Positions 1-27,002 are shown, numbered from the stretch's first letter. The stretch is 37,605 nucleotides of DNA from Trueperaceae bacterium (GCA_040905465.1 JBBDRK010000040.1:1-37605); one strand, 5' to 3'. Numbers and translations: made by a program. The notes: a model not told the origin generated them from the sequence alone.

Positions 1-626
1 TCCTTCTCGCGCGCCTCGAGCTTGGCCTTGATCCGCTTGAGGACAGTCACCTCCTCGAGCGCCCGCTGATCGAGAACGCTGCGGATGTCGCGAATCTGCT
101 TCTGGATGTTGGGGATGACCAACTGCTCGAGCGCGTTCACCCGGCGGTTGGTCTTCTTGATCTCCTCGCCGATACGGCGAAGCCGGGTCTCGGTGGCCGC
201 AACCTGGACGAGTGCCTCGGTGAGCTTGCGAAACTGCTCCGCCGCCGACAACGTCTGCGCGCCGGCACCGATCGGCGAAAACGGCAACTCGTCGGAAAAC
301 TCGGGCGGCTGCACCGCCGGCACCTTGAGGCCGAAGAGGTTCTCGACCCGTATGTCGACCTCGAGCTGCTGCGGCGAGGCCAGGCTCAGGCTCTCCACGG
401 CTTCGGGACCGTCCCAGGCCTTGGCCAGGAACAGGCTGAAGTAGGCTTCCTGACTGGCGGCGTTCAACGACCGCCTGGCCTCGAGCGACGACTTCACCAG
501 CTCGAAGAACTCGCCAATCAGGGCGTCGCGCTTGCGCTTGAGCAGGTCGGCCCCACGCACTGCCAGCCGCAGCTGGTCGCGCCGCTGCAGCAGGTTCGAT
601 CTGGTTGGGGCGATTGTCTCTGCCAC
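1..626 (-). CDS. atpD: V/A-type ATP synthase subunit D (3'-truncated by window edge; not in the ORF track)
   Basis: Manual translation from GTG at 626 after an AGGAGG RBS: MAETIAPTRSNLLQRRDQLRLAVRGADLLKRKRDALIGEFF...EIKKTNRRVNALEQLVIP; directly follows subunit B. Confidence 0.96.
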   Translation of the reverse strand, partial: MAETIAPTRSNLLQRRDQLRLAVRGADLLKRKRDALIGEFFELVKSSLEARRSLNAASQEAYFSLFLAKAWDGPEAVESLSLASPQQLEVDIRVENLFGLKVPAVQPPEFSDELPFSPIGAGAQTLSAAEQFRKLTEALVQVAATETRLRRIGEEIKKTNRRVNALEQLVIPNIQKQIRDIRSVLDQRALEEVTVLKRIKAKLEAREK

Positions 627-647
627 GATTGCCTCCTGGGGCAGGCG

Positions 648-2069: not shown

Positions 2070-2080
2070 GCCAATCTCCC

Positions 2081-3820
<1,740 letters not shown>

Positions 3821-3855
3821 TTGATCTCCTCGGTAGAGGTGTTGCCTGCTTGCGC

Positions 3856-3927
3856 GGCTACTCGCGCTCTATGGTTGCTCGAGCCTGATGGCGACTCGAT
3901 CTCGTGCGATGGCTACTCGAGTTTTAT
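3856..3927. repeat. Four degenerate 17-21 bp tandem copies of the atpF 3' end/stop region
   Basis: ggctactcgcgctctat / ggttgctcgagcctgat / ggcgactcgatctcgtgcgat / ggctactcgagttttat. Confidence 0.6.
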
Positions 3928-4239
3928 GTCGAAGCCGATTGCGTTGCGAACCAGGTCCTTCATGTATTCGGTGGCGTCGTCCCCCTCGCCGAACGCCGCC
4001 GACAGGCTGGGAACCGGCAGGATTACCGGCAGGTCCCGTCCACGCATTATGCGCGCCGTCGATGTGACGGGGTCGGCAACGAGCCCCTCGTCGACCACCA
4101 CCAGCCCGTACTCCTCGGACTCGATGAGACTTTCGAGGGCTCGGTCGGCACCCTCCTTGTCGGCCTCGCGAACCTCGACCCCGGCCAGCCGGTATCCGGT
4201 GGCGGTCTCGCTGTCGGTGAGGATGATCACCTTATGCAT
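3913..4239 (-). CDS. atpF: V/A-type ATP synthase subunit F
   Basis: MHKVIILTDSETATGYRLAGV...VRNAIGFDIKLE; the ATG overlaps the atpC stop region. Confidence 0.95.
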   Translation of the reverse strand: MHKVIILTDSETATGYRLAGVEVREADKEGADRALESLIESEEYGLVVVDEGLVADPVTSTARIMRGRDLPVILPVPSLSAAFGEGDDATEYMKDLVRNAIGFDIKLE

Positions 4240-5248
4240 GGCCGAGCTCCTTCTCGAGCTGCTCGCGAGGCACGTCGTAGAACTTGCCGCGAGCCAGCAG
4301 CCGTAGCCGCGCCGATTCGGCCTCCTTGCGCCGCAGGAAATCGACCACCACTCCCGGCCCAAGGGGGTCTCGCAGCGACAGTCGATGAGCGCCCTGATCG
4401 AGCACCCGCCGAATCACCCGGTCCGCCTCGGCCAGGGTCGACGTATTGGCGACGTCGGCGAAGCCGGTGCCGGAGAGATTGGCCAGGGCGCCCTGTGTGG
4501 AATCGGCGACGATCGCGTCGAAGGTAGAGCGGTCGACCTCGCGTCCGCCCGGCAGGTAGAGGTCTTCGCCGGTGGCGGCCTTGCCACGCACCTTCAGCGC
4601 CGTAGAGAGGTTCGCTGCATCGATCTGACGCCGCACGTAGCGGATCAGTTCTTTGGGGGCGTCCAGCGCCTCCATCGCGTCCAGCAGCGTGCTGAAATAG
4701 GCCCGGTCGAGCGTCAGCTCGAACTCGAACAGCCTGCCGCTCGAGGCATAACGGCGTACCGCTCTGCCGAACGCCCGCGACAGCGGGTGACCGGTAACGG
4801 CCAGGACCTGAGCCATGGCGGGCAGGTCGGCCGAAGCTGCCATGGTCTCGACGAGCGCCGGCTTTAGCTCCCCTGCCGGCAGCAGTGCCGAGCTCACCCC
4901 TTCCCCTTCCCGGCCGGCATGCTTTGCGCGCGCCAGCGTCTTGAGGTTCATGAGGTCGTAGCCGATGAGCAGGAGCGCGATGAGCTCGTGCGGCCGGCCG
5001 TCGGAAAAACCGAGGATCGAGCGCGCGGCGCGCCGGAAGTTCTCCGCCACCGCCCGATCGAGTGCCGTCAGCCCCGAATCACGGGATTGCGCCTCTTCGA
5101 GCTCGTTCGTGTAGGGAGTCTGGGCGATCGTGCCGACGAAAGCGCGGAAGTCGCTGTCGCCGAGCGCCTGGGTATAGAACTCCGATTCGAGCAGCTTGGC
5201 CTTCATCCCACGAACGCGGGCATTGATGTAGCCGAAATCGGAAGACAT
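4232..5248 (-). CDS. atpC: V/A-type ATP synthase subunit C (d/AC39)
   Basis: DFGYINARVRGMKAKLL N-terminus, RLRLLARGK C-terminus, operon position. Confidence 0.95.
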   Translation of the reverse strand: MSSDFGYINARVRGMKAKLLESEFYTQALGDSDFRAFVGTIAQTPYTNELEEAQSRDSGLTALDRAVAENFRRAARSILGFSDGRPHELIALLLIGYDLMNLKTLARAKHAGREGEGVSSALLPAGELKPALVETMAASADLPAMAQVLAVTGHPLSRAFGRAVRRYASSGRLFEFELTLDRAYFSTLLDAMEALDAPKELIRYVRRQIDAANLSTALKVRGKAATGEDLYLPGGREVDRSTFDAIVADSTQGALANLSGTGFADVANTSTLAEADRVIRRVLDQGAHRLSLRDPLGPGVVVDFLRRKEAESARLRLLARGKFYDVPREQLEKELGHA

Positions 5249-5249
5249 C

Positions 5250-5840
5250 CTACCCTTCCTTGCTCAGGAGCACCTGCGCTACCTCGGCGGCGAGCTCCTC
5301 GCGAAGGGACTCGAGCCGGCCGTAGAGGGTGTTCTCGATGATGACGTTCTCGCCCGCCTTCAACCTTAGACCGCCGCGTACCGACTCATCGGTCTCGACT
5401 GCCGCGCTCAAGCCGGCGGCCTTGGCCGCCTTGGTTGCAGCGGCCTGGTCGCCGGGGTTGACGACGACCGCCTTGACATTCGCCGTTTCGACCCCGCTAC
5501 CGGCGACGGCCTCGTCGATGAGCTTGGCCAGCACGTCGGCGTACTCGTTCTTGCCGGTGAGCGCATCGATCTCGCGTTCCGCCTCGCCGAAGACCTCTTC
5601 GATCACGGCGTGCTGGGCGCGAAGCGTCAGAGAGGAAGATTCCAGCTGAGCGGCGCTGCGTGCCCGTACCAGGGCCGCGCGCTGCTGCGCCTCGGCGCTG
5701 CGCCGGCGTCCCGCCAGCAGCGTACTCGCCTCTTCGTTGGCAGCAGCGACTATCTCCGAGGCGCGCGCACGCGCCTCGGAGAGGATGCCTTCGATCTCCG
5801 CGCTCGCTTCTCTGTCAAGCAGAGCAGCCAGATCAGCCAC
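5250..5840 (-). CDS. atpE: V/A-type ATP synthase subunit E
   Basis: N-terminal coiled coil, C-terminal GGLRL...IENTLYGRL; operon position. Confidence 0.93.
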   Translation of the reverse strand: MADLAALLDREASAEIEGILSEARARASEIVAAANEEASTLLAGRRRSAEAQQRAALVRARSAAQLESSSLTLRAQHAVIEEVFGEAEREIDALTGKNEYADVLAKLIDEAVAGSGVETANVKAVVVNPGDQAAATKAAKAAGLSAAVETDESVRGGLRLKAGENVIIENTLYGRLESLREELAAEVAQVLLSKEG

Positions 5841-5841
5841 G

Positions 5842-6162
5842 TTATCCGCCTATCTGACCGTTGAGGAAGAAGGCGATGACGAAGGCGAAGATGATCAGGG
5901 TCTCGGGGATCACCAGGTAGATGAGGATCTGACCGAACGCCTCGGGCCGTTCGGCGATAGTGCCGGCGCCGGCGCTGCCGATGGCGGCCTGCGCCAGACC
6001 CACGCCGATCGCCCCGAGACCGATGGCCAAACCGGCGCCGAGCGCCATCAGGCCCTGGCCCACGCTGGCGCCGGAGGCCACTTCTGCCGCCTCCTGGGCG
6101 AAGCCGGTGGCGAGAAGCGCGAGTACCGAAATGAAGCTGAGTACGGAAACGAATTTCTTCAT
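5842..6162 (-). CDS. atpK: V/A-type ATP synthase proteolipid subunit K/L with N-terminal signal peptide
   Basis: MKKFVSVLSFISVLALLATGFA signal-like leader, GLGAIGVGLAQ and LVIPETL with the essential Glu; ATGA overlap with the atpI stop. Confidence 0.96.
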   Translation of the reverse strand: MKKFVSVLSFISVLALLATGFAQEAAEVASGASVGQGLMALGAGLAIGLGAIGVGLAQAAIGSAGAGTIAERPEAFGQILIYLVIPETLIIFAFVIAFFLNGQIGG

Positions 6163-8150
6163 GCTTTTCCTCCAAGTAGACGGAACGGCTTGTACGGGCG
6201 GCCGTTGGCCTCGTAGAAACCGAACTTGGTAAAGAACTCGACGTACTGCAAACGAAGCGGTTGCAGTGTGTGTCCGATGATCGTGAGCGCTATTGCGACG
6301 AAATGTATCGTCAGCGCGATGATTATGCCCAGCAGTGCGCCGATGACCGGCACCGGCAGGGCGGCCGCGATGGCGAAGCCGACGTCGGTCGCCAGATTGG
6401 CGACCAGTGCGGCGGACAGGCCAACAGCGAAGAGACGGAGATAACTCAGGATGTTGCCGGAGTTCGAGATCAGCTCGATCAACATCAATGGCACCCCGGA
6501 CAGCACCACCCCCAGCAGGAACAGCGCCATGCCGACACCTACCACCAGCCATACCGCGGTACCGAGCGACTCACCGAGATAGGCAGTGGCGAACACGACC
6601 AGGGCAGTGAGACCCGCCATCATGCCGATCCCTTCCCAGAGGTGTTTCCGGTCCTTGTGAAGGATCCCGTAATAGGCGCGAATCGCCCAGCCGCCGATGA
6701 CCTGCAGGACGCCGAAGCCGATGGTCAGGAGCAGCAGCGGGGTGAACTCCTCGACCCGGAACAGCGCGATTGGGATCATGCCGTGGTCGCCGTGTGACGG
6801 GGCATAGAACACCGGGTTGTCGTGCGGCCAGTGCTCTAGGAAGTTGCCGAAGAACTCGCCGTAGATGAAGCCCCAGCCGATCGACCAGAGCGCAGCCCAG
6901 TTGACGATAGTGCCGATCGCCGGCAGCGACGAGGCCGGAATCACGATTCCCAACGGTCCCAGCGAGATGAGTCGTCCCGCCTTGCCACGCTTCCTGAGCC
7001 ACAGGCCCAGGGCCAGGAACAGCAGGCCGAACCCGATGTCCCCCAGCACGATGCCGAAGAACAGCGGGAAGAATACCGCCAGCGTCCAACTGGGATCGAA
7101 GTTTCCGTAGCGGGGAGGCGCGAACAACGTCAGCAGCATCTCGAACGGCCTGACCCAGCCTGCGTTGTCGAGCTTGACGGGAACCGAGTGATCGACGTGA
7201 TCGTCCGCGACGCGCGAGACTATCGCGACGTCGCTGCCGAACTGCTTGCGCAGGCCTTCACTGACCTTGCGGGTATCCTGAGACGGCACCCATCCGCGCA
7301 GGGCGAACGCGTACCGGCCGGTGAGCATGTCCTCGAGCCGGTCGAAGCGCACCTGCTGGTTGAGAGCGATGAGATGCGCTGCCCGCAGCTTCGGGCCGTG
7401 CGACTTGGCCAACCCAGTGAGTTCGGCATTCAGGTCGTCGAGTCGCCGCGGCACGTTCTGGGAGCGTTCCTCCATCACGTGAACCGCCTTGGCGACACCG
7501 TATTCGGCGTAGCGTCCGGGCAGCGCCAGGGGGCTGATGCCGTTACGGCTCAGGGCCTGAGCCAGGGCAGCGTCGTCCTGCTTGAGAACGGCCGCTACCA
7601 GGAGGGACTCCCTGGCGAAGGGCCGCTCGGCGAACGCGACGCGGCCCTCGAGAGCCTGCTCGATGTCGGCGCGAACCTCGGCCGCCGCGTCCGCTCCCAC
7701 CAGGAATGCATGACCGGTTAGATAGCGGCTGCCCTCGAGCTGAGCCAGTGTCGGGGCGAGCGCGCGGAACAACGGCAGGTAGGTATGGATTATGTCCAGT
7801 TCGTCTCGCAGGCGCGAGCGTTCGCCCACCAGGGCGTCGATTCGCGGGCCGACCTCCTCGAGGTAATCGTCGAGCTCCTCCAGCGAACCGGGGGCCTCGC
7901 TCTTGGCGGCTGGCGCCACATCCTGCGACTCCAGCGCGGACAGCAGCGTTTCGGCACGGCCGACCGCAGACGACCAGCTCTCCCGTTCGTCACGTTCGGC
8001 TCCTTCGAGCACGTAGCGCGCGAGATCGAGTCCCTCCTCCGGTTCGAGTGGATCGACCTGCACCACGCCGAGACTCTGCAGACTCTGCAGAAGGTCACGC
8101 GCGATGCTCCGCCGTCCCACCACCGTGAGTTGGTCCATTCGGGCGATCAC
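6159..8150 (-). CDS. atpI: V/A-type ATP synthase subunit I (a)
   Basis: 663 aa; GDIGFG, NILSYLRLFAVGL (essential Arg), LRLQYVEFFTKF. Confidence 0.97.
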   Translation of the reverse strand: MIARMDQLTVVGRRSIARDLLQSLQSLGVVQVDPLEPEEGLDLARYVLEGAERDERESWSSAVGRAETLLSALESQDVAPAAKSEAPGSLEELDDYLEEVGPRIDALVGERSRLRDELDIIHTYLPLFRALAPTLAQLEGSRYLTGHAFLVGADAAAEVRADIEQALEGRVAFAERPFARESLLVAAVLKQDDAALAQALSRNGISPLALPGRYAEYGVAKAVHVMEERSQNVPRRLDDLNAELTGLAKSHGPKLRAAHLIALNQQVRFDRLEDMLTGRYAFALRGWVPSQDTRKVSEGLRKQFGSDVAIVSRVADDHVDHSVPVKLDNAGWVRPFEMLLTLFAPPRYGNFDPSWTLAVFFPLFFGIVLGDIGFGLLFLALGLWLRKRGKAGRLISLGPLGIVIPASSLPAIGTIVNWAALWSIGWGFIYGEFFGNFLEHWPHDNPVFYAPSHGDHGMIPIALFRVEEFTPLLLLTIGFGVLQVIGGWAIRAYYGILHKDRKHLWEGIGMMAGLTALVVFATAYLGESLGTAVWLVVGVGMALFLLGVVLSGVPLMLIELISNSGNILSYLRLFAVGLSAALVANLATDVGFAIAAALPVPVIGALLGIIIALTIHFVAIALTIIGHTLQPLRLQYVEFFTKFGFYEANGRPYKPFRLLGGKA

Positions 8151-8467
8151 GGCAGTACGCGATCCATGACCAACTTGACTGCGCTCTTGCGGTTGCTCCT
8201 GGCCCGCGCCTCGACACGGTCCACTTCGGCGCGTGCCCGCTCCAGGATCTCCTCGCGCACCCCTGCGCTCTCCTGTTCGGCTTCCGCCCGCAAGCGTTCG
8301 GCAACGTCACTCGCCTCGGCTCGGGCTCGCTCCAGAATCTGAGCGGCCTCAGCCTGCGTCTTCTCTATGATGTCGGCCGCTTCCTTCTTGGCGCGCTCGA
8401 CCTTGGCGAGCACCGCCTTCTCGTGATCGACCAGGCTTTGCAGCAGTTGTTCGCCTTGAGCTTCCAA
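8147..8467 (-). CDS. atpG: V/A-type ATP synthase subunit G/H (peripheral stalk)
   Basis: 106 aa Ala/Glu/Arg coiled coil; first gene of the operon; AAGGAGG RBS before TTG; GTGA overlap with atpI. Confidence 0.9.
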   Translation of the reverse strand: MEAQGEQLLQSLVDHEKAVLAKVERAKKEAADIIEKTQAEAAQILERARAEASDVAERLRAEAEQESAGVREEILERARAEVDRVEARARSNRKSAVKLVMDRVLP

Positions 8468-8590
8468 ACGGCCCTCCTTTCACCCGGATATTCCCCGTTG
8501 TGCCATGCGGATATGGGGTCTGACTGGTGTCTCGAAAGACAGAGAACGCGATGAACAAGGCACATTTGCCAGTGCCCGCGTTACCGCGAA

Positions 8591-8620
8591 AGCATACCAA
8601 TCGCTCTTTCACCGTGTCAA
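8591..8620 (-). promoter_or_regulatory. SigA-type promoter of the atp operon
   Basis: Minus strand TTGACA (8620-8615), 18 nt, TATGCT (8596-8591), with an extended TG. Confidence 0.75.
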
Positions 8621-8713
8621 TCGAGACATTTGTCCCTGGCGACCCCAGAATCCGGGGCCTGTGACGGGCAAGTCGACCGCCGTTTCGGCTCTCGAATCCG
8701 GCCCTGAAGGCAC

Positions 8714-8722
8714 TGGTACACT
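8714..8722 (+). promoter_or_regulatory. Extended -10 for a leaderless methyltransferase mRNA
   Basis: TGgTACACT 7 nt before ATG 8730; no SD sequence. Confidence 0.65.
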
Positions 8723-8729
8723 CTTGCGG

Positions 8730-10337
8730 ATGAACCCTCAGCGGGGCCCCCTGGACAAGGCGCGCGGCGCCTACTACACCGAGAAGCGGGTGGCGGCAGC
8801 GCTTTGCCGCTGGGCCTTGCGGAGAAGCGGCGAACGGGTCCTCGACCCGGCCTTCGGGGGTGGCGTGTTTCTGGAAGCCTGCGCGCGACGCCTGGCAGAC
8901 CTCGGCGGCGGCGAGATCTTCGGCGTGGAGGTCGACCGGACCGCGCACGCCGGCGCGACCGGAGGCCATGGAGAAACGCTCTGCGGGCGGAGGCTCCTGC
9001 TGGCGGACTTCTTTTCGCTTGATGCCGACTCCCTTCCGGCGATGCAGGCGGTGGTGGGGAATCCGCCGTTCATACGCTTCCAGCGGTTCACCGGCGAGAC
9101 GCGGGCGCGGGCGGCCCGACGATCGCTGGAGCAGGGTGTGCCGCTGGAGCCGCTGGCGGGCTCGTGGGTGGCGTTCGTGGCGCACGCCACGTCGTTCCTC
9201 GCCACCGGAGGGCGGCTGGCCATGGTGGTTCCGGCCGAGCTTGGCCACGCCCCCTACGCCAGGCCGCTTCTGAGCCTGCTGCAGCACTCCTTCTCCCGCT
9301 CCACGATCGTGTCGTTCCGCAGGTCGCTCTTTCCCCATCTCGATCAGCGGACGGTGCTGGTGCTGGCCGACGGCTTCGAAGAGGGTCCGGCGGAGTTTCG
9401 CTCGCTCGACCTTGCCGGCGCGGAAGCCCTGGAGAAGCCCCTCCCGTGCGCCGGCGACCGAGCTCTCGACGCCGATAAGCTAGTGACCGGCCGCTCGAGC
9501 CTGGCCCATGCGCAACTGGACGCCGCGACGATGGCGCTTTACCGTGATCTGCCTGAGCGCGGCGCGATCCACCTGGGCGAGCTCGCCCGGGTCGAGAGCG
9601 GCTACGTCACGGGAGCGAACTCCCACTTCCACCTGAGTCCCGGCGCAGCCCTGGCCTCCGGGCTGCCGAACGAGGTACTGGTGCCGGCGGTGCTCCGCTC
9701 CAGGGCTCTTGCCGGCCTGACGCTGACGGAGCGGGACTGGCCGGCCGCCGTCGAGTCCGGGGCCGCCGGCTACCTGGTGCAGGCGTCCGGCCATGAAGAG
9801 CACCCGGCGGTCGCCGCCTTCCTCCGCCGGCTGGAGCGGGCCGGCGTCCAGGATCGCTACAAGACTCGCAATCGAGCCGTGTGGCACAAGGTACCCAGAG
9901 TGTTCGCCGCGCCCATGCTGCTCACCGCCATGGGCGGCCGCGGCCTGCGACTGGTCGTCAACGACGCCGGCCTGGCCTCCCCGAACACCTTCCACCTGGT
10001 CACCCCCCACTCCCCCGATCCCGCTGTCCGGCCGAGCCTGGCGGCCGCCTGGCTCACCTCGCTGACCGAGCTGAGCCTGGAGCTCGAGGGCCACGCCCTG
10101 GGCGGAGGCATGCTCAAATGCGATCCCGGCGAGGCGCTGCAGGTGCTGCTGCCCCCGCCCGCTCCCCTGCCCCCGGCGTGCCTCGAGCGACTCGACCGGC
10201 TGCTCCGCGACGGGGAGCGGGAGGCAGCCCGCCAGGAGGCCGACCGGCTGCTGCTCTCGGGAGCGCTCGGATTGAGCAGCGATGAGATCGACGCACTGGC
10301 CAACGCGGCCGCCGAGCTGTCAACGCGACGAAAATAG
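8730..10337 (+). CDS. N6-adenine DNA methyltransferase (gamma class, Eco57I/TaqI-like), no adjacent endonuclease
   Basis: GAYYT, motif I VLDPAFGGGVFL, motif IV VVGNPPF, GGRLAMVVP, C-terminal ELEGHALGGGMLK. Start set at ATG 8730; the ORF-track 8505 start runs across the atp promoter. Confidence 0.88.
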   Translation: MNPQRGPLDKARGAYYTEKRVAAALCRWALRRSGERVLDPAFGGGVFLEACARRLADLGGGEIFGVEVDRTAHAGATGGHGETLCGRRLLLADFFSLDADSLPAMQAVVGNPPFIRFQRFTGETRARAARRSLEQGVPLEPLAGSWVAFVAHATSFLATGGRLAMVVPAELGHAPYARPLLSLLQHSFSRSTIVSFRRSLFPHLDQRTVLVLADGFEEGPAEFRSLDLAGAEALEKPLPCAGDRALDADKLVTGRSSLAHAQLDAATMALYRDLPERGAIHLGELARVESGYVTGANSHFHLSPGAALASGLPNEVLVPAVLRSRALAGLTLTERDWPAAVESGAAGYLVQASGHEEHPAVAAFLRRLERAGVQDRYKTRNRAVWHKVPRVFAAPMLLTAMGGRGLRLVVNDAGLASPNTFHLVTPHSPDPAVRPSLAAAWLTSLTELSLELEGHALGGGMLKCDPGEALQVLLPPPAPLPPACLERLDRLLRDGEREAARQEADRLLLSGALGLSSDEIDALANAAAELSTRRK

Positions 10338-10346
10338 CGTGCCCTG

Positions 10347-10979
10347 CTACTCCGCCTCGGCCGGCAACCGCCTCCGCATCTCGTCGCCCGTAGCCGCGGC
10401 GGCGGGATCATCCGACCGCATCAGGGCGTCAACGATCCGCGCCTGTTCCTTCCGACTCTTGTTCTGGCTGAGCTTCATCTTGCCCTCGAGCCGGTCGACG
10501 ATCAATTCGAAGCCAACAATGCCGCGCAGCATGCCCTGACGATAGCGGGCCGAAAGCGAGTCCCAGCGCGCCTGGTATTCCGGCTCGTGCTCGCCGATCA
10601 GCTCGGCCAGAATCTCCGCGAGCGTCTCTGGCTCGTCGTCGAACGAGAGGGGGCGGGCACGACCGGACGCGTGAACGGCCAGGTAGTTCCAGGTCGGCAC
10701 GCTCTCCCACCTGTCGTAGTGAACCGGGGAGATGTAGGCGTGTGGCCCCGCGAAGATCACCAGAGTATCGCTGCCGCCGAGAGAGCGCCACTGCTCGTTC
10801 GCCTTGGCGAAGTGGCCCCGGATGCGCACGCCCCGTGGAGTCTCGGTGACGGTGACAGGAATGTGGCTGGCGAGCGGCAAGTGGTCTGCGGCCGAGACGA
10901 CGGTGGCGAAGGCGTGCTCTTTCATGAAGGCGAGCAGCGTCTCCGGGTGGTCCTCACGGTTGAGGTGGGGGATATACAT
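10347..10979 (-). CDS. paiB: PaiB-family FMN-binding negative transcriptional regulator
   Basis: MYIP start with AGGAGG RBS; GHFAKANEQW, GPHAYISP, VPTWNY, KLSQNK. Confidence 0.9.
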   Translation of the reverse strand: MYIPHLNREDHPETLLAFMKEHAFATVVSAADHLPLASHIPVTVTETPRGVRIRGHFAKANEQWRSLGGSDTLVIFAGPHAYISPVHYDRWESVPTWNYLAVHASGRARPLSFDDEPETLAEILAELIGEHEPEYQARWDSLSARYRQGMLRGIVGFELIVDRLEGKMKLSQNKSRKEQARIVDALMRSDDPAAAATGDEMRRRLPAEAE

Positions 10980-11040
10980 CACGCCTCCTGGGCAAACGAG
11001 TGTTCGCTCACTCGCTGGCAAGGTTGCTTGCTCCGAGCGG

Positions 11041-11448
11041 TCACACGACCTCGATCCTCACCATGTCCTGCAGACCGACGAAGTCGTCGGCGTTTCGAGT
11101 GAAGAGCGGCAGTCCGTGGATGCTAGCGATTGCGGCGATCATCAGGTCGAGGCGGCGAGCGCGCCCTTTCCGGCCGGCCGCCACCGTCAGTGCCACCAGC
11201 GACCCGTACTTTCGCGCGGCTCCCGCGTCGAACGGCAGTGGAGCAAGGTATGCGTTCTCGGCGAGCTGAAGGCGTTCGAGCCGGACGGCGCGCTCGCGGT
11301 CGTCGCGTGCCAGGTGTGGGCCCTGGGAGAGCTCGGCGAGGGTAACGGCCGTGATCGTAGCTTTCAGCGGTAGCCGCTCTTCTTGTATCTCCGGAAGGTC
11401 GATGACGACAGAAGTGTCAAGTACGCCGTAGTCGTATCGCTCACTCAT
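11041..11448 (-). CDS. vapC: VapC PIN-domain toxin
   Basis: VLDTSVVID, TLAEL, DLMIAAIA, LFTRNADDF acidic PIN residues; overlaps the antitoxin stop by 8 nt. Confidence 0.92.
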   Translation of the reverse strand: MSERYDYGVLDTSVVIDLPEIQEERLPLKATITAVTLAELSQGPHLARDDRERAVRLERLQLAENAYLAPLPFDAGAARKYGSLVALTVAAGRKGRARRLDLMIAAIASIHGLPLFTRNADDFVGLQDMVRIEVV

Positions 11449-11713
11449 TCGTGCGACGACCTCGAGATCGCTCTACGCGGTCCTCGCCGAATATCGCGTC
11501 GGCTTCGGCGCGCATCCTGGCGTAACCGCCCGGTGGAAGTGACGCGAACGCGGCCTTGAGCTCCGCGCTCGAGACGAACGCCTTTACCGGAACGGGTCGC
11601 AGCTCTGCGACCTCGACCCCATGCCGGGTAATGAGGAAACTCTCGCCACGCTCGACGGCGTCCATGAGCGCGGCACTGCCGTTGCGCAACTCACGCTGGC
11701 TGATCCTCTTCAC
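11441..11713 (-). CDS. vapB: Phd/YefM-family antitoxin (VapB role)
   Basis: MKRISQRELRN...AVERGESFLITRHGVEVAELRP; GTG 11713 is preferred over ATG 11728, which lies within the promoter/operator. Confidence 0.88.
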   Translation of the reverse strand: MKRISQRELRNGSAALMDAVERGESFLITRHGVEVAELRPVPVKAFVSSAELKAAFASLPPGGYARMRAEADAIFGEDRVERSRGRRTNE

Positions 11714-11718
11714 GCCTG

Positions 11719-11738
11719 AGTGTAGCATAAGGTGCTAC
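11719..11738 (-). promoter_or_regulatory. vapBC extended -10 overlapped by a palindromic operator
   Basis: GTAGCA-N5-TGCTAC (11722-11738) overlapping TGcTACACT, which is 5 nt before GTG 11713. Confidence 0.75.
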
Positions 11739-12024
11739 GCGCACCCTCGTCCCTCGCCGGAAGGGTGCCGCTGAGTCGATGCGACTGAGCCACCGGGGGC
11801 AGGCACCGCACAGGCCTGCGACAACCCCGTTCCCGAACGTCGTGCAGCTAGAGGGATTCTGCCGCACGACTACGTCAGGTTGCGTATCCGCCGAACGCCA
11901 AGCAGGAGGGACCACCGAAGGGCCCATCTCGCGGGCGTCGCTGGACGGGAGAGATCGTCCGCAGCAGGCATCGATCAAGGGTCGGGCGACAGTCACCTTA
12001 GCTGTCGACGAGCACACTTGCCGC

Positions 12025-12651
12025 ATGTACATATACGCGACTGAAGAGCACCGGACAGATGAGGCCAGGCCGACGGCCAGCGTCGAGGACAGGCTCGAGG
12101 GGCTGCTCGAATATGCACCGGTTAGAGGCGCCATTGCCGGCGCACTCGCTACCGTTCCCATGACGTTGTCCATGTATGCCATGGATCGGCTGGTGCCGCA
12201 CGAGGAGGGAGACGAGCTTCCCCCACGACAGATAACCGAGGAGTTGGCGGAGCGTACCGGGACCAAGGAGAATGCCCAGGAAACCACACTGGATCTCGCA
12301 ACCGAGGCCGCCCATTTCGGCTTCGGAAGCGTAACGGGCGCGATATACGGTTCGCTGGCCGGACGTGTGCCGCTGCCATCGACCGTTGCCGGTATCGGTT
12401 TCGGACTGGCGGTCTGGACCGCCAGTTATGCAGGCGCCCTGCCCGGTCTCGGTCTGCAGCGGCCGCCCGACCGCCGGCCCGCCTGGCGCAACCTCACCAT
12501 GATTGCGGGCCACGTGGTCTGGGGCGCCGCGCTCGGGTGGAGCGAGCAGCGCTTGCGAAATCGCCGTCGGGCCGTGGCGTGGGTACCGGGAGAGCGGCAG
12601 GGCCGAGACAGGGGCGTCGGCAGGGGTGTCGCGTTCAGCGAACATGGCTGA
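12025..12651 (+). CDS. Membrane protein, DUF1440/DUF6789-like (start uncertain)
   Basis: GAIAGALATVPMT, ELPPRQIT, AHFGFG, WTASYAGALPGLGL, MIAGHVVWGAALG; about 4 hydrophobic helices; CACACT 6 nt before ATG 12025. Confidence 0.7.
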   Translation: MYIYATEEHRTDEARPTASVEDRLEGLLEYAPVRGAIAGALATVPMTLSMYAMDRLVPHEEGDELPPRQITEELAERTGTKENAQETTLDLATEAAHFGFGSVTGAIYGSLAGRVPLPSTVAGIGFGLAVWTASYAGALPGLGLQRPPDRRPAWRNLTMIAGHVVWGAALGWSEQRLRNRRRAVAWVPGERQGRDRGVGRGVAFSEHG

Positions 12652-12689
12652 AAGGATGCCAGAAGTTCGATGAACGCGACACCCCTGCC
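12619..12689 (+). repeat. 71-bp palindromic dispersed repeat, copy 1
   Basis: Perfect 19-bp arms ggcaggggtgtcgcgttca / tgaacgcgacacccctgcc around cgaac-a-tggc-tgaaaggat-gcca-gaa-gttcg; homologous to 15828-15898. Confidence 0.9.
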
Positions 12690-12762
12690 TCCTGCGAGGC
12701 GGCTTCGAACCTGAGCGGACCGAGTACCCGGTACGCCCGACTCCTGTTAAAGTGCCCCGTCA

Positions 12763-13611
12763 ATGCGTCTCGCGGTGATCTCCGATATCCATGGCAACCT
12801 GGCCGCGCTGGAGGCTGCACTTGCCGACATCGAGTCGCTGGGAGTGGATCTGGTGGTGGTCGCCGGCGATCTGGTCAACGGCGCACCGGACTCACGCGCT
12901 TGCTGGGAGTTGATCCGCTCGCGCGGTTACTCGATGTTGCGGGGGAACCATGAACGTTATCTGTTCGACCTGGGCACCCCTGCCGAGGCGGCGGAGTGGC
13001 AAGGCGAGAGGTTCGGCGCCGTGCGTTGGGCGGCCGCACGGTTCAGCCGCGCCGAGCTGGACGAAATGCGGGATCTGCCCGACTGCCCCCGCCCGGCCGA
13101 TTGCCACGATCTGTTGATAGTCCACGCATCGCCCCGGCGTGACAACGACAACCTGCGGCCGTACACGCCGGAGGATGAAATCCGGGCGATGTTCGCGGGA
13201 ACGAGCGAGGCCCTGGTGATCCGTGGCCACAACCATATAGGCAACACCCTTCAGTTGAGCGGTCGAACGAACGGCAACGCCAGGACGGTCGAGCGCACGA
13301 TAGTCACTTGCGGCTCGGTCGGAATGCCCCTCGACGGCAACGCCAGCGCGCAGTACCTCCTGCTCGAGCGCCACGGCCGGAGCTGGCGCTGGGAGCACCG
13401 CTCGGCGCGGTACGACGTCGATGCCACGCTGCGCCGCTTTCACGAGGACGGTTACCTCGAAGCGGCGGGACCGATCGGTCGACTTCTCATGAGGGAGATC
13501 GCCACCGCCAGCCACCAGATGGTCCCGTTCCTCAGCTCCTGGGAACGTTGGTCTGATGGTGGAGAGCTCGACCTGGCGGCGGCGGTAGACAGCTTCCTAA
13601 ACGCCTATTGA
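12763..13611 (+). CDS. Calcineurin-like metallophosphoesterase (YfcE/MJ0912-like)
   Basis: SDIHGN, AGDLV, RGNHE, VHASP, GHNH, GSVG motifs. Confidence 0.92.
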   Translation: MRLAVISDIHGNLAALEAALADIESLGVDLVVVAGDLVNGAPDSRACWELIRSRGYSMLRGNHERYLFDLGTPAEAAEWQGERFGAVRWAAARFSRAELDEMRDLPDCPRPADCHDLLIVHASPRRDNDNLRPYTPEDEIRAMFAGTSEALVIRGHNHIGNTLQLSGRTNGNARTVERTIVTCGSVGMPLDGNASAQYLLLERHGRSWRWEHRSARYDVDATLRRFHEDGYLEAAGPIGRLLMREIATASHQMVPFLSSWERWSDGGELDLAAAVDSFLNAY

Positions 13612-13636
13612 CGAGCAACGCCGGCAATCTGGACCG

Positions 13637-15502
13637 TCAGAACCGCTTGCGGGAACGGCCGAAGCCGGCCGGCATCCTCAAGCGCCGTTCCGCCTCGCGC
13701 GCCACCTGCTTGGAGGCGATCTCCTTGAGTTCGGAGTACAACGCATCCAACCTCTCCCCCGGCAAGCTGGAGTCAGCCAGGAGCGCCTGGATCTCCTCCA
13801 TTCGCTCCAGTAGTCTCGATTGCTGGCTGGTCTTCTCGCCGTCGAGGTACAGCTCCCGCAAGCGCGAGAGCAGCTTGTCTATGTTGCCGTCGATGTCGAT
13901 CTTCGAGTCGCCGGCAGCGGCCGACTCCCCGAATAGCCGCGCCCAGACAACGCTGCCTTCGTCCCGCTCCCGGTAGCGGAGAAGTACCCGGCGATCGTCG
14001 AACTCGCACTCGCGACACAGCTCGTGGAACTCCCGAAGCAAAGAATCGGCTGCCGGTGGCAGGGACGCTTCCAGCCCGGTGAGCCGCGACCGCAGGCGCG
14101 CGGGCTCGAGCAGCAGCAGGGCGATGACCTCGAGTTCGAGAGATTCCGCTTGGCCACGGACACTCCGTGTGCCCTTCATGCCGCGCACCTGGGTGTCGTC
14201 GAGCCGGCCGCCGCGGCTGCTGCTGCCCAACCAGGAGTCGAGCGAACGCTCCTCGATTCCCAGCTTGTCTATAACCAACCGGCGCATCTCGGCGGCCACC
14301 GGATCGAAGACGGATCTCGCCTTGAGCGCCGGCATGAGTTCGTTGAGGATCGACTTCTGGCCCTGCACGGTAGTGGCGTCGAAGCGCTCGAGCACGCTGC
14401 TGAAGCGAAACTCGACCTCCGATAATCCGTCCTCGAGCGCGGCCAGGAAGTCGTCGAGGTGGCCCCCCATCACCGCGTCGGCCGGGTCCTTGCCGAACGG
14501 AACCTGCACCGCCCGCACTAGGAACTGCCGGCCCACGGCCTGCTCCAGCCCGGAAAGAACCGCCCGCTGGCCGGCCGAATCGGCATCGAACGCGAGGTAC
14601 AGCGTGTGCACGTCGAGCCGGCTCAACTGGTCCGCCTGCTCGGAGGTCAGGGTTGCGCCCAACGCCGCCACCGCGTGCCGCACGCCCACCTGATGCAGGG
14701 CGATGACATCCATGTAGCCCTCGACCACGATGCACTCACTGCGTGAACGGATCTCGCCGCGGGCGTTGTCGAGGCCGTACAGCAGCCGGCCCTTGTGGAA
14801 GATGTCGGTCTCCGGCGTGTTCAGGTACTTGGGCAGCGAGTCGTCCAGCACCCTTCCGGCGAATCCCACGACACGTCCGAGCGGGTCGCGAATCGGAAAG
14901 ATCACGCGGTTGCGGAACCGGTCGAACCTGCGTCCGCTGTCGTTCTCCGAGAGCAGGCCGGCGTCCAGCAGTTCCTGGTCGCGGTAGCCCTTGGTAAGCG
15001 CGTGGCGGAGGAGCCCATCCCAGCCGTCGGGCGCGAAGCCGAGACCGAATGTCTCGACCGTCTCGTCGCTCAGCCCGCGCCGCCCGAAGTAGCCGCGAGC
15101 CGTTGCTCCGCCCTGTGGGTGGCGGAGTTGCTCGATGAAGTAGGCCAGCGCCATGGAGTTTACGTCGTACAGGTCCTTGCGCTTGCGGTCGCGTGGGGTG
15201 GGAGGCGTGACCTCGACGCCAACTCGGTGACCGAGCGTCTGCATGGCCTCGCCGAAGGAGAGTCCCTGGCTACGCATTACGAAGTCGAAGACGTCGCCCT
15301 TGGCCTGGCAACCGAAACAGTAGAAAAAACCGCGGTCGCGATGAACGTGGAAAGAAGGCGTCTTCTCGCTATGGAACGGGCACAGGCCCTTGAGCTGATC
15401 ACGTCCCGCGGGCTTGAGAGCCACCAGTTCGCCGATCAGCTCGGCAATGTCGAGCCGTTCCCGAATCTGTTCTTTGGCGCCGTCCGCCACGCTGCCCGCC
15501 AC
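13637..15502 (-). CDS. dnaG: DNA primase
   Basis: Zinc finger CPFHSEKTPSF...CFGC, KYLNTPET, TOPRIM VEGYMDV and FDADSAG; GGAGG RBS. Confidence 0.97.
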   Translation of the reverse strand: MAGSVADGAKEQIRERLDIAELIGELVALKPAGRDQLKGLCPFHSEKTPSFHVHRDRGFFYCFGCQAKGDVFDFVMRSQGLSFGEAMQTLGHRVGVEVTPPTPRDRKRKDLYDVNSMALAYFIEQLRHPQGGATARGYFGRRGLSDETVETFGLGFAPDGWDGLLRHALTKGYRDQELLDAGLLSENDSGRRFDRFRNRVIFPIRDPLGRVVGFAGRVLDDSLPKYLNTPETDIFHKGRLLYGLDNARGEIRSRSECIVVEGYMDVIALHQVGVRHAVAALGATLTSEQADQLSRLDVHTLYLAFDADSAGQRAVLSGLEQAVGRQFLVRAVQVPFGKDPADAVMGGHLDDFLAALEDGLSEVEFRFSSVLERFDATTVQGQKSILNELMPALKARSVFDPVAAEMRRLVIDKLGIEERSLDSWLGSSSRGGRLDDTQVRGMKGTRSVRGQAESLELEVIALLLLEPARLRSRLTGLEASLPPAADSLLREFHELCRECEFDDRRVLLRYRERDEGSVVWARLFGESAAAGDSKIDIDGNIDKLLSRLRELYLDGEKTSQQSRLLERMEEIQALLADSSLPGERLDALYSELKEIASKQVAREAERRLRMPAGFGRSRKRF

Positions 15503-15628
15503 TGTCTCAACCTCCGCCCGACGCCAATCCTCCGCCTCGCGGCCCCCAGCCTTGCGCGGAGCCTAACTCGGCCCAACTCGACCGTTTCTCCTCCGAGAAT
15601 ATCACGCAGCCCGGCCACCCCCGCCGGC

Positions 15629-15730
15629 AAGCTGCCCTAACGCGAAGGCGTTCGCACCGAAGCACGGGCAACGCCGAGCCCAACGAGTTCGCAACGGGAA
15701 GCTGCCGCTACGCGAAGGCGTTCCCCCCGA
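15629..15730. repeat. Direct repeat pair with 70-bp period
   Basis: aagctgccctaacgcgaaggcgttcgcaccga (15629-15660) vs aagctgccgctacgcgaaggcgttccccccga (15699-15730), 27/32 identical. Confidence 0.8.
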
Positions 15731-15827
15731 CACGCTGCCCGGTTTCTACACCCCTATCGCCCGGCGACCGCTCGCGGCCGCCCGGGCCACACCACCCCAC
15801 TTCCCAAGTTCGCAGCGAAGCAAGCGA

Positions 15828-15898
15828 GGCCGGGGTGTCGCGGCGAGCGAACTTCTGGCGTCCTTTCCGCCATGTTCGTCCGTCGCGACACCCCGGCC
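15828..15898 (-). repeat. 71-bp palindromic dispersed repeat, copy 2 (inverted relative to copy 1)
   Basis: Perfect 15-bp arms ggccggggtgtcgcg / cgcgacaccccggcc; minus-strand core cgaac-a-tggcg-gaaagga-cgcca-gaa-gttcg; 58/71 identical to copy 1. Confidence 0.9.
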
Positions 15899-15920
15899 GA
15901 AGCACGGGCGATGCCAAGCA

Positions 15921-16451
15921 CTACCGGGGAAATAACGGAAGATGCCCAAGCGCCACCACGTCGTCGCGCGGTTCACCCTCGGTGAACACCACCAGCGTGG
16001 CGACCACTTCACCGCCGATCTCCTCGAGCAGCTCCCGCAGCCCTTCGAGGGTTCCGCCGGTGCTGACCACGTCATCGACTATCGCGACCTTACGGCCGCG
16101 AATTCGATCGACGTCGGCGCCGTCGATCACCAGTTCCTGGGGCTTACCGGTGGTTATGGACAGCACCGTTCGCTTGACGGCATCCACCATGTAGGGCTTC
16201 TCGGTCTTGCGCGCCACCACGTAGGGAATGCCGGTATTGCGGCTCATCGCGTGGGCCAGCGGCACCGCCTTGACCTCCGGGGTGATCAGCACTTCGATCC
16301 CCTCGGGCATGCAGCGTCCCAGCTCGGCGGCGGCCTCCTCGGTCAGTTCGGTATCGCCCAGCAGGTTGAGCAGCGCCACGGAAACCTCTCCGACGCTGAC
16401 GATCTTCAGTCGGCGTTCGGCCTTTCCGATGCGAACAGTGTAGTGCTCCAT
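15921..16451 (-). CDS. Purine phosphoribosyltransferase (Apt-like)
   Basis: PRPP-binding motif [28 protein letters not shown] 16451 with AAAGGGG RBS. Confidence 0.9.
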
Positions 16452-16536
16452 GGTCGCGAGACCCCTTTCAGCTCCCACCGCCGGGGTTCCGGGAAGAGCA
16501 TAGCGCGGTCGCCGGAACGGGCCGGCGCCTGTCGCC

Positions 16537-17403
16537 TCAGTCGAACACGATAGTCTTGTTGCCGTACACCAGGATACGGTCGTCGAGGTGGGCCGCGACC
16601 GCCCGGGCGAGCACCATCCGCTCGACCTCCCTGCCCACTCGGGCGAGGTCGGCGACCGACTCGCGGTGCGAAACCCGGTGCACGTCCTGGGCGATAATCG
16701 GCCCCTCGTCGAGGTCGTCAGTGACGTAGTGAGCCGTCGCGCCGATCAGCTTGACGCCACGCTCGTAGGCGTGGCGGTACGGATTGGCTCCCATGAAGGC
16801 AGGCAGGAACGAGTGGTGGATGTTGATGATGCGCTCGGGCCAGCGGGCAACGAACTCCGCCGACAGAATCTGCATGTAGCGGGCCAGCACGATCATGTCG
16901 ACGCGTCCCTCGAGCAACTCCTGCATCGCCGCTTCCTGCCGGGCACGGCTTTCCGTGGTGACCGGCAAGTGATGGTACTCGACGCCCAGCGACTCGCTCA
17001 CGTCGCGCAGGTCGTCGTGGTTGGACAGTACCAGCGGTATCTCCACGTCGAACTCTCCGCTGCGTGTGCGCCACAGCAGCTCCAGCAGGCAGTGATCGTA
17101 ACGGCTCACCAGTACCGCCATCCGCTTGCGCCGATCGGCGTAAGAGATTCGCCAGTCCATCGCGAAGGGTGCAGCCACCTCCTCGCCGAACGCCCGTTCG
17201 AGCTCCGACCTCCCCAGGTCCAGGCCGCTGCAGTGGAACACCATTCGCATGAAGAAGGTTCCCCCGCTCGGATCGGTGGAGTGCTGCGACGAGTCGAGCA
17301 CGTTGGCGCCATGGGCGTAGAGGAATCGAGAAACGGCGGCCACGATACCGCGTCGGTCGGGGCAAGAGATAAGCAGCCTTGCCGTGTTGGCTCTCTCAGT
17401 CAT
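16537..17403 (-). CDS. purU: Formyltetrahydrofolate deformylase
   Basis: ACT domain [40 protein letters not shown]. Confidence 0.97.
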
Positions 17404-24887: not shown

Positions 24888-26900
24888 CTAGGCGTCTTGC
24901 GCCTGTGCCCGGCGCACCACCCGCGTAACCTCGTCGAGCGCTTCCGGGTTGGCTATCACCGATCGATTGACTACCTCCTCGCCGTTCACCACTCGGGCCA
25001 CGGCCATCTCCATCACCTTGCCCGAGCGTGTGCGCGGCAGTTGCGATACCGCCAGGACTCGGCCGGGAACGTGACGGGGGCTGGCAGCCTTGCGGATCCG
25101 TGAGCGGATCGTTTCCACCAACTCTTCGTCGAGCGGCACCCCTTCGGCCAGGACCACGAACAGCCAGATCGACTCGTCGCCGTCCTGGCGCCGACCCACG
25201 GCGGCGGCCTCCAGCACTTCCGGGAGCTCATCCAGGGGCCGGTAGACCTCGGCCGTCCCGATGCGTACCCCGCCCGGGTTGAGAGTCGCGTCGGAACGGC
25301 CGAACACCACCACACCTCCCTCAGGTGTCATCTCCACCAGATCGCCGTGATGCCATACCCCGTCGAATCGCTCGAAGTAGGAGCGCCGGTAGCGCTCGCC
25401 GTCGCGATCGTTCCAGAAGCGCAGCGGCATCGAGGGCAGCGATTGGCGGCATACCAGCTCGGCCGGGCGTCCCCGCACCGGTCTGCCCTGGTCATCGAAC
25501 GCGGCCAGGTCGACTGCCAGGCCGGGAGCCTGAATCTGACCGGAATACACGGGCAGCGTGGGCACGCCCAGCATGAAGCAGCTGACTATATCGGTGCCGC
25601 CCGAGATCGACGCCAGATGGACGTCTTCCTTGATCGAACGGTAGACGAACTCGAACCCGGCGGGCGACAGCGAGGAGCCGGTGGAGGCGATGGTACGCAG
25701 CCGGCCCAGGTTGAACTGCCGCGGCTCGACCTGCCGGGACTGAAGTGAGTGCAGGTAGCGGGCGCTGGTCCCGAAGAAGGTGAACCGGTGACGGTCCGCC
25801 AGGCGCCACAGCGTCTCGATGTCGGGGTGGGCGGGCGATCCTTCGTAGAGTACCGCCGTCGCTCCTTGGGCCAGCACCGACACCAGCCAGTTCCACATCA
25901 TCCACCCGCAGGTGGTGAAATACAGGGCCAGGTCGCCCGGTCGTATGTCGCAGTGCAGTCGGTGCTCCTTGTGGTGCGCCAGCAGGACGCCGCCGGCCCG
26001 GTGGACGATCGCCTTCGGCGGCCCGGTGGTGCCGGACGAATAGAGCACGTAGAGAGGATGATCGAACGGCTGCGGTTCTAGCCGCGGGGCGCCTTCGTTT
26101 TGCCTCGGCAGCCACTCCTCCCAGGGCACGGTTTCCGCCGGAGGCGGACCGGGCCCGGCCCCCGGGCAAGGTAACGCTACCGCCCGGCGAAGCCCAAGCT
26201 CGGCGACCAGCCGGCGGACGGTCGACGCGGTGTCGAAGCGCTTGCCGCCGTAACGGTATTCGCACGAGGCGGCCAGCACCTTGGGCTTCACCTGGCCGAA
26301 CCGCGCAGCGGCTGCCTCGAACCCGAAGTCGGGCGAGCAACTAGTGAAGATCGCGCCCAATCCGGCGCAGGCCAGCAATAGGACCACCGTTTCGGGCACG
26401 TTGGCGGCGAACGCGGCCACCCGGTCGCCGGGTCCGATGCCCTCGCCGCTCAACGCGGCCTGAACCGCCGCCGTTTGGCGCCTCAGCTCCGCATAGCTGA
26501 GGCGCCGCTCGCCACCTGACTCGTCGAGCGCCAGCAGAGCCGGCTGACTCTCCGCGACGAGGGCCGGTGGGTAGAGCAGGGCTTCCGCGTAGTTGAGCGT
26601 AGCGCCCGGGAACCAGCGGGTACCCGGCATCGGGTCGTTGCTCATGACCCGCTCTGGAGGGGCGTGAAACGGTATGCCGGCGAACCGCGCATACAGCGAC
26701 CAGAAGCCGGCCGGGTCGGCGACCGACCAGGCGTGTAGATCGCTGTAACCGGCCAGGTCACGACCGGCAGCGGCACTCGCCTGCTCCCGGAATGTCGTGA
26801 TCGCCGCCTGAGCGATGCGGGCCTCGGAAGGACGCCACAACGGTTCGAGCTGCGGTTCGAGCTGTGGTTCAGACTGCTGTTCGGTCTGTCGTCGACGCAT
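24888..26900 (-). CDS. Acetoacetate--CoA ligase
   Basis: LWRPS, YSSGTTGPPK, FTTCGWMMWNW, ASISGGTDIVSCF, GRSDATLNPGGVRIGTAE, PRTRSGK; ATG 26900 with GGAGG/GGAG upstream. The ORF-track start at 27374 is over-extended. Confidence 0.93.
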   Translation of the reverse strand: MRRRQTEQQSEPQLEPQLEPLWRPSEARIAQAAITTFREQASAAAGRDLAGYSDLHAWSVADPAGFWSLYARFAGIPFHAPPERVMSNDPMPGTRWFPGATLNYAEALLYPPALVAESQPALLALDESGGERRLSYAELRRQTAAVQAALSGEGIGPGDRVAAFAANVPETVVLLLACAGLGAIFTSCSPDFGFEAAAARFGQVKPKVLAASCEYRYGGKRFDTASTVRRLVAELGLRRAVALPCPGAGPGPPPAETVPWEEWLPRQNEGAPRLEPQPFDHPLYVLYSSGTTGPPKAIVHRAGGVLLAHHKEHRLHCDIRPGDLALYFTTCGWMMWNWLVSVLAQGATAVLYEGSPAHPDIETLWRLADRHRFTFFGTSARYLHSLQSRQVEPRQFNLGRLRTIASTGSSLSPAGFEFVYRSIKEDVHLASISGGTDIVSCFMLGVPTLPVYSGQIQAPGLAVDLAAFDDQGRPVRGRPAELVCRQSLPSMPLRFWNDRDGERYRRSYFERFDGVWHHGDLVEMTPEGGVVVFGRSDATLNPGGVRIGTAEVYRPLDELPEVLEAAAVGRRQDGDESIWLFVVLAEGVPLDEELVETIRSRIRKAASPRHVPGRVLAVSQLPRTRSGKVMEMAVARVVNGEEVVNRSVIANPEALDEVTRVVRRAQAQDA
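26842..26889. repeat. Four degenerate 12-bp tandem units encoding the N-terminal Q(T/S/L)E(Q/P) repeats
   Basis: ggttcgagctgc ggttcgagctgt ggttcagactgc tgttcggtctgt. Confidence 0.8.
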
Positions 26901-27002
26901 GGCTCCAGTTCCTCCCGGTCCCCTCAGTCTAGATGAGACGGCCGGCACCTGAGCGCGACAGGTCGCTACCGCTTCCAGGGCGATCGGGTCGTAGACTGGC
27001 CT

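Follow-up and report, generated by a model that had tools for sequence, protein, structure and literature searches.

Two inverted copies of a 71-nt hairpin element at gene ends on a Trueperaceae-like contig

Why should two long and closely similar hairpins lie 3.1 kb apart, in opposite orientations, at the ends of genes on a single bacterial contig? The window considered here is a 37,605-nt stretch of DNA from a Trueperaceae bacterium (GCA_040905465.1 JBBDRK010000040.1:1-37605). It is an entire metagenomic contig, and copy counts within it therefore cover 37.6 kb only. A first-pass annotation of its sequence had pointed to two copies of a 71-nt hairpin element, and had proposed that they belong to a dispersed family that acts as an RNA element or as a transposase substrate. 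We found that the pair of copies and their structure are well beyond chance. The two copies and the short tails that follow them are these:

12619..12689, plus strand: hairpin copy 1, identified by repeat search, fold, alignment and covariance model (99.1 bits)
15828..15898, minus strand: hairpin copy 2, identified by repeat search, fold, alignment and covariance model (99.7 bits)
12690..12716, plus strand: 3' tail of copy 1, weakly similar to the copy 2 tail (block GCTnCGAACnTGnG)
15801..15827, minus strand: 3' tail of copy 2, containing a module, B (15808-15822), that is also present in a hairpin-less paralogous unit nearby

When the 71-nt copies were aligned, which required no gaps, 58 of the 71 columns were invariant and 13 differed. 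A 31-nt core, CGAACATGGCnGAAAGGAnGCCAGAAGTTCG, is present exactly in both copies and has exactly two matches in the window even when up to three mismatches are allowed, compared with 0.00 expected from 100 shuffles. Thus, the coordinates, the identity and the invariant core that had been claimed for this pair all hold. The repeat search extends the inverted arms to 12614-12691 and 15826-15903 (78 nt, 82% complementary, 3134 nt apart), and the copies share no identical run longer than 12 nt. The weak homology said to continue on one flank is also real: the tails are weakly similar over about 27 nt on the 3' side. The flanks are otherwise unrelated, and the common segment is sharply bounded. CGAAC/GTTCG half-sites recur in the element and in its tail.

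Both copies fold into an irregular hairpin of 28-29 bp arranged in three stacked stems. From the base upwards, a lower stem (15-19 bp) and a 1x1 mismatch lead to a CGAAC/GTTCG stem of 5 bp; above this, an asymmetric internal loop (A/GAA) and a TGGC/GCCA stem of 4-5 bp are capped by the GAAAGGA loop. In copy 1, the lower stem has 19 bp, the TGGC/GCCA stem has 4 bp, and the terminal loop is TGAAAGGAT. Copy 2 is built likewise, except that its lower stem is replaced in the upper part on both arms and its loop is closed by an additional G-C pair; the loop size is 7-9 nt across the copies. Copy 1 folds at -56.8 kcal/mol (z -6.98) and copy 2 at -56.2 kcal/mol (z -6.45), and none of 200 shuffles folded as well. 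RNAalifold independently predicted the identical hairpin. Folded as DNA, the element reaches -31 to -34 kcal/mol on either strand. Such a hairpin is exceptional for this contig: the covariance model described below gives the next best match 16.4 bits against about 99, and the other close inverted repeats listed with separate arms have arms of 10-13 nt.

The differences between the copies are informative. They fall in columns 4, 16-20, 31, 39, 52, 54-56 and 68, and if the 1x1 loop is counted as a pair, they resolve into six dyad-partner pairs plus one one-sided change. Three of the 29 pairs changed on both sides and are still paired (A-U to C-G, U-A to C-G and C-G to G-C); the remaining altered pairs comprise one one-sided change (A-U to G-U) and two unpaired cells. 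A 5-nt patch was swapped on both arms together. When 13 changes were placed at random, six dyad-partner pairs were reached in 0 of 200,000 trials, with a maximum of five. Additionally, 11 of the 13 unpaired columns are invariant, and the two that changed face each other. Because six dyad-partner pairs changed together and nearly all unpaired columns did not, we conclude that the substitutions are tied to the dyad symmetry and that the unpaired core is frozen. The covarying stem proposed in the first-pass annotation stands in one respect, as the substitutions keep the dyad symmetry. It does not stand as evidence for RNA, as covariation at the RNA level is not separable from maintenance of a DNA palindrome, and what looks like covariation could equally stem from the latter. 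Shuffle controls for covariation are weak with only two sequences, and the observed covariation was reached in 58 of 500 shuffles.

The genes next to the copies are the following:

12025..12651, plus strand: DUF1440/YagU-like membrane protein gene; the 10 codons at its end (GRGVAFSEHG) and its stop lie in copy 1
12763..13611, plus strand: calcineurin-like metallophosphoesterase gene, starting 73 nt past copy 1
13637..15502, minus strand: dnaG (DNA primase), starting 325 nt past copy 2
15921..16478, minus strand: phosphoribosyltransferase-domain gene, with its stop 22 nt upstream of copy 2

Reading along the contig, the DUF1440 gene, copy 1 and the metallophosphoesterase gene point rightwards and converge on a leftward series made up, from right to left, of purU, the phosphoribosyltransferase gene, the spacer with copy 2, and dnaG. 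Both copies lie between co-directional genes, and in both cases GAAAGGA lies on the strand that is sense for the flanking genes. Neither copy is followed by a U-tract, the stems leading into TCCTGCGAGG and TCGCTTGCTT. The sense orientation, the position at gene 3' ends and the lack of a U-tract had all been described before, and they are correct at both loci. A terminator scan of 11400-16700 found three sites, with 3.0 expected, and none coincides with either copy; no sigma-70-like promoter coincides with either copy. A canonical intrinsic terminator is ruled out by the lack of a U-tract and by the absence of both hairpins from the terminator-scan sites.

The surroundings of copy 2 offer a view of how the element may come and go. 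The spacer between the phosphoribosyltransferase gene and dnaG is 418 nt long and holds two paralogous units, one of which is without the hairpin. Two features define the comparison:

15625..15684, minus strand: hairpin-less paralogous unit ('empty site'), 60 nt, with modules A, B and C contiguous
15897..15904, minus strand: left 8-nt direct repeat TGCTTCGG at the 5' junction of copy 2, with a partner, TGCTTCGC, at 15815-15822 (7/8 identical)

In the compact unit, modules A (28 nt), B (15 nt) and C (36 nt) overlap. In the expanded unit, they follow in the same order on the minus strand (A at 15919-15897, B at 15822-15808 and C at 15730-15695), but 74 nt that are essentially copy 2 (15896-15823) part A from B, and another 77 nt (15807-15731) part B from C. 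Each module match was reached in 0 of 2000 shuffles. The overlap between A and B in the compact unit is the 8 nt TGCTTCGG, and in the expanded unit this sequence flanks the hairpin on both sides, as TGCTTCGG and TGCTTCGC. The two units resemble a filled and an empty site with an apparent target-site duplication, which suggests a discrete insertion or deletion at the DNA level. The second insert, 15731-15807 (77 nt), does not have an unusual fold (z -0.82). More generally, the spacer from 15615 to 15930 (minus strand) is built of locally duplicated short modules and carries several CGAAC motifs, and its 36-nt repeat (15625-15660 and 15695-15730) contains a small AACGC-CTTC-GCGTT hairpin.

Copy 1 appears to have altered a gene. 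Its 5' arm and loop encode the DUF1440 C-terminus GRGVAFSEHG, and the TGA stop lies within the loop (12649-12651). In contrast, nine of 12 aligned DUF1440 homologues end in a conserved ...W; the closest of these, at 82% identity, ends in ...GPAEVHW. Two of the other three stop earlier and one ends in ...QDR, so that the tail of the window's protein occurs in none of the 12. Because the homologues end otherwise, the native end of the DUF1440 gene seems to have been displaced by copy 1. A search by eye in three frames downstream of copy 1 found no convincing remnant of the ancestral terminus. Candidate direct repeats at copy 1, GGCGTCGG and GGCTTCGA, are identical at six of eight positions, and their spacing is unlike that at copy 2. 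A common reading frame across the copies was considered and set aside as incidental: the DUF1440 gene and the open reading frame (ORF) 15746-16075 run through the element in one and the same frame, but copy 2 is post-stop and non-coding. The extent of the DUF1440 gene at its other end depends on the start chosen. The longest ORF, 11779-12651 (plus strand, 290 aa), begins well upstream of the homologue starts; the protein is listed as 208 aa (start 12025), and several homologues begin later, just before a conserved RGAxAG.

Based on these observations, we tentatively propose that the element is a small non-autonomous, non-coding palindromic repeat of the repetitive extragenic palindrome (REP), miniature inverted-repeat transposable element (MITE) or 'stem-loop sequence' kind, specific to an uncultured Trueperaceae-like lineage. 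We regard this as a leading possibility that falls somewhat short of an even chance. In such a model, gain or loss would take place at the DNA level and involve a discrete unit of about 74-100 nt. The unit may have been inserted into both sites; the mirror alternative is that hairpin-mediated slippage removed it from the paralogue. Once in place, the repeat would be co-transcribed with the upstream gene, so that the mRNA of the DUF1440 and phosphoribosyltransferase cistrons would end in a hairpin of about -56 kcal/mol. Such stable hairpins at mRNA ends typically block 3' exonucleases or act as leaky terminators. Here, the hairpin could hold back 3' exonucleases or, as a terminator that is leaky and lacks a U-tract, insulate the metallophosphoesterase and dnaG genes. 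That the unpaired core is frozen points to a protein partner, and the invariant unpaired bases (the A/GAA internal loop and the GAAAGGA loop) may form the recognition surface for a protein that moves or binds the element.

The proposed kinship with known repeats is one of resemblance. According to Di Nocera et al. (2013, PMC3733652), tagged REPs are 20-40 bp long, and the CGTC families have a stem of 8-9 bp, a loop of 4-5 nt and a CCA tail. GTAG- and CGTC-tagged REPs resemble our element in being non-coding palindromes that mostly lie downstream of coding regions, where the neighbouring genes are unidirectional or convergent; they are also plausibly transcribed, have stems and loops that differ among subsets, and are sometimes located within gene ends (PMC3733652). 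Our element differs from that description in having 71 nt, 28-29 bp in three stacked stems, a loop of 7-9 nt and no CCA tail, and membership in the CGTC REPs was rejected on size and shape (PMC3733652). The tetranucleotide CGTC does stand directly 5' of copy 1 (12615-12618), and CTTC stands at the matching place of copy 2. A further difference from REPs is that neither a high copy number nor a RAYT gene was seen, there being two copies in 37.6 kb and no transposase-family match among the 44 ORFs scanned.

Some bacterial MITEs, such as the Neisseria Correia/NEMIS elements, ERIC and RPE, fold as long hairpins and are co-transcribed with genes. They resemble our element in a length of about 70-150 nt, in inverted-repeat symmetry over the whole length, and in insertion at gene ends or spacers, where they at times extend or re-terminate ORFs. 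The 71-nt element has terminal inverted repeats, with 25-nt arms that are 96% (copy 1) and 88% (copy 2) complementary, and is too short to code for a protein. It differs from these MITEs in that only two copies are present, no parent insertion sequence (IS) is known, and the candidate short direct repeats at its flanks, a trait of such MITEs, are imperfect and clear at copy 2 only.

Other classes fit less well. IS200/IS605 and PATE-like units carry short, imperfect subterminal hairpins at their two ends, with a Y1 HUH TnpA encoded in the genome. Here, there is a single 71-nt hairpin with no pair of left and right ends. No Y1 HUH TnpA gene was found in the window, where 44 ORFs of at least 80 aa were scanned with Pfam and none matched a transposase family; the suggested link to HUH or RAYT nucleases finds no support in the window. 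CsrA/RsmA sites present GGA in a hairpin loop (ANGGA), usually at two or more sites and in genomes with a csrA gene. The loop GAAAGGA contains AAGGA, with a single GGA loop per element. A link to CsrA had been raised from this loop motif; it rests solely on AAGGA, no CsrA match was present among the scanned ORFs of at least 80 aa in these 37.6 kb, and we consider it unsupported so far. An attC site was rejected by direct reading, as the outer ends are GGCnGGGG/CCCCnGCC and not inverse-core and core sites.

A parallel within the phylum is provided by the SNRs (small non-coding repeats) of Deinococcus radiodurans, which have 295 copies of at least nine types, are mosaic, and are absent from D. 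geothermalis (PMC1978522). This absence means that such families are lineage-restricted within the phylum. The likeness consists of the shared phylum, of lineage-restricted non-coding repeats, and of the mosaic of short modules around copy 2; the comparison is by description and not by sequence, and the exact-core scan described below gave no Deinococcus match. A literature search for palindromic repeats or MITEs in Truepera and Deinococcus found nothing relevant.

Several results weigh against a mobile palindromic repeat. The first is copy number: there are only two copies, 3.1 kb apart and inverted, and the remainder of the 37.6-kb contig has none. When a covariance model was built from this pair and run over the whole window with filters off, it recovered only these, at the scores given above; the next match scored 16.4 bits (E 0.31), and the antisense strands of the copies themselves scored 59.8 and 55.8 bits. 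The lack of a matching RNA family, by contrast, counts in favour of the repeat reading: Rfam 15 gave no match in the whole window at gathering thresholds. At E<=10, only generic miRNA precursor hairpins matched, the best at 33.6 bits against a gathering score of 90. BLASTN of 12600-12720 returned only partial chance matches from 72,556 plasmids (best E 1) and from 50,697 phages (best E 0.3), and none covered 80% or more of the query. We then have the scan of 185,579 species genomes (2 x 596 Gb) with the degenerate core pattern GAACAnnnnnGAAAGGAnnnnnGAAGTTC, which contains 19 fixed bases. It gave four matches, and about 4.3 were calculated by chance. The four came from Bacillales, Lachnospiraceae, Pseudomonas and a Thermoplasmataceae metagenome-assembled genome (MAG), with no Deinococcus record among them, and they were rejected as copies because they form no hairpin (z -1.29 to +1.52) and score at most 13 bits with the covariance model. 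As the scan did not return the window's own copies, it is silent on copy number in the source genome. At the protein level, phmmer with a 40-aa translation of the element gave 0 matches at E<=0.001 among 1.84 billion representatives, and a word search with residues 56-95 of ORF 15746-16075 (minus strand) among proteins of 59-191 aa gave no candidate; these translated-copy searches are low in power, as they use short peptides in one frame and on one strand only. Thus, the claim of a dispersed family is not supported: across the contig, Rfam, plasmids, phages, species genomes and protein-level searches, only two copies were found.

The second group of difficulties concerns movement. No transposase, integrase or reverse-transcriptase family matched any of the scanned ORFs. 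The repeated modules around copy 2 are short, and the direct repeats at copy 1 are weaker (6/8) and differently spaced. Module B, which under insertion would be the 'target', also lies in the tail common to both copies, and a simple target-site duplication does not fit because part of the common tail then counts as target. Finally, the filled and empty sites could also reflect the opposite direction of change, with the palindrome lost by slippage between the flanking direct repeats.

Alternatively, the hairpin could act in cis, as an RNA element that serves the metallophosphoesterase and dnaG genes through intercistronic processing or protein binding, for instance as a site for a double-strand-specific RNase or as a loop that displays a Shine-Dalgarno-like GAAAGGA. 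We consider this unlikely. It would account for the placement of both copies on the sense strand between co-directional genes, 73 and 325 nt upstream of the next start, for the invariance of the unpaired bases while the stems vary with compensation, and for the asymmetric internal loop within a long duplex. The RNase III sites of phage T7 likewise have an asymmetric internal loop in a long duplex. However, two of two copies in the sense orientation has a chance probability of 0.25, so that the sense-strand argument, on which an RNA-level role had been based, carries no statistical weight. The antisense strands also fold as well as the sense strands or better, at -57.9 kcal/mol for copy 1 and -62.7 kcal/mol for copy 2, where G.U pairs take the place of the sense strand's two A.C mismatches. 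Additionally, a hairpin-less paralogue adjoins dnaG, and copy 1 overlaps a coding end unlike that of the homologues, which makes it look derived and not conserved. The core is also absent from the 185,579 species genomes, a collection for which the inclusion of the Trueperaceae MAGs with 86% identical UvrB (see below) is not established.

A second alternative, to which we give a similarly small chance, is a private local inverted duplication. According to this explanation, a segment of about 100 nt was copied once to a place 3.1 kb away, for example by a template switch in replication or repair, and has no function beyond an incidental hairpin. This would agree with the finding of exactly two copies, close together and inverted, with none elsewhere in the contig or the collections searched, and the spacer around copy 2 has other local duplications. 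Yet the copies have diverged by 18%, and the changes keep the dyad symmetry and leave 11 of 13 unpaired positions invariant. To diverge in this way, the copies must have been maintained for a long time, whether by selection or by a process that corrects palindromes, and such upkeep is not expected of a one-off duplicate without a function.

It is also conceivable, but improbable, that the invariant asymmetric core is the docking module of a dedicated protein and the swapped 5-bp patch a variable 'address'. The element would then stand for a class of structured hairpins, mobile or regulatory, that is new and belongs to uncultured Deinococcota. Its role would be either that of a single-stranded DNA substrate for a nuclease whose link to 71-nt hairpins is still to be made, or that of an RNA element tying the expression of dnaG to that of its neighbours.

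Lastly, inverted DNA sites, either protein-binding (operator) or recombination sites, that bracket the convergent metallophosphoesterase-dnaG pair and allow its inversion are very improbable because the longest identical run of 12 nt is poor for homologous recombination and no recombinase gene was found among the scanned ORFs, even though inversion would preserve all transcription directions and CGAAC/GTTCG half-sites recur in the element and tail; the half-site spacing of 21 nt, against the 4 nt of the CGAAC...GTTCG boxes of Gram-positive LexA, also led us to reject a LexA (Cheo) box.

Judging from the nearest relatives of its UvrB, ATPase A subunit and DUF1440 proteins, the source of this contig, which has a G+C content of 66%, is an uncultured Trueperaceae-like member of the Deinococcota without a close sequenced relative. 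The nearest named UvrB relatives are from 'Trueperaceae bacterium' MAGs, at 86% identity, and the nearest DUF1440 relative is 82% identical, with one in a Trueperaceae MAG at 56%. The best relatives of solved structure are 3a5c for the ATPase A subunit (983 bits) and 1d2m/1c4o for UvrB (920 bits), all of which we take to be Thermus thermophilus structures.

The contig carries a V/A-type ATPase operon, dnaG, ruvB, uvrB and ksgA. The ATPase operon is complete (3-8467, minus strand; subunits G, I, K/c, E, C, F, A, B and D). A likely accessory cluster, 8505-11728, lies just upstream of copy 1 and comprises an Eco57I-like N6 DNA methyltransferase (8505-10337), an FMN-binding protein (10347-11021) and a PIN toxin/Phd-YefM antitoxin pair (11041-11448 and 11441-11728). 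The window's UvrB (29497-31560, plus strand) has 687 aa. Two related UvrB proteins of about 1200 aa carry the additional domains PF14528, PF14890 and PF01381, the first two of which are presumably intein or homing-endonuclease families; the window's uvrB is without such an insert. An ORF at 31618-33171 (plus strand, 517 aa) has gene-like codon bias (GC3 0.81) and no Pfam match. The longest acetyl-CoA-synthetase-like ORF (24888-27374, minus strand) overlaps an ABC transporter ORF (27003-28907, plus strand) by about 370 nt; because its Pfam domains begin at residue 210, its true start is probably further downstream.

Two copies on a single metagenomic contig amount, at present, to a feature of an ordinary kind without a demonstrated function. 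Copy 1 illustrates how such an insertion can give a gene a new C-terminus and a new stop codon. Should there be a full family, Trueperaceae-like Deinococcota would have their first described palindromic repeat, and the contrast between an invariant unpaired core and covarying stems would provide a convenient handle for its protein partner.

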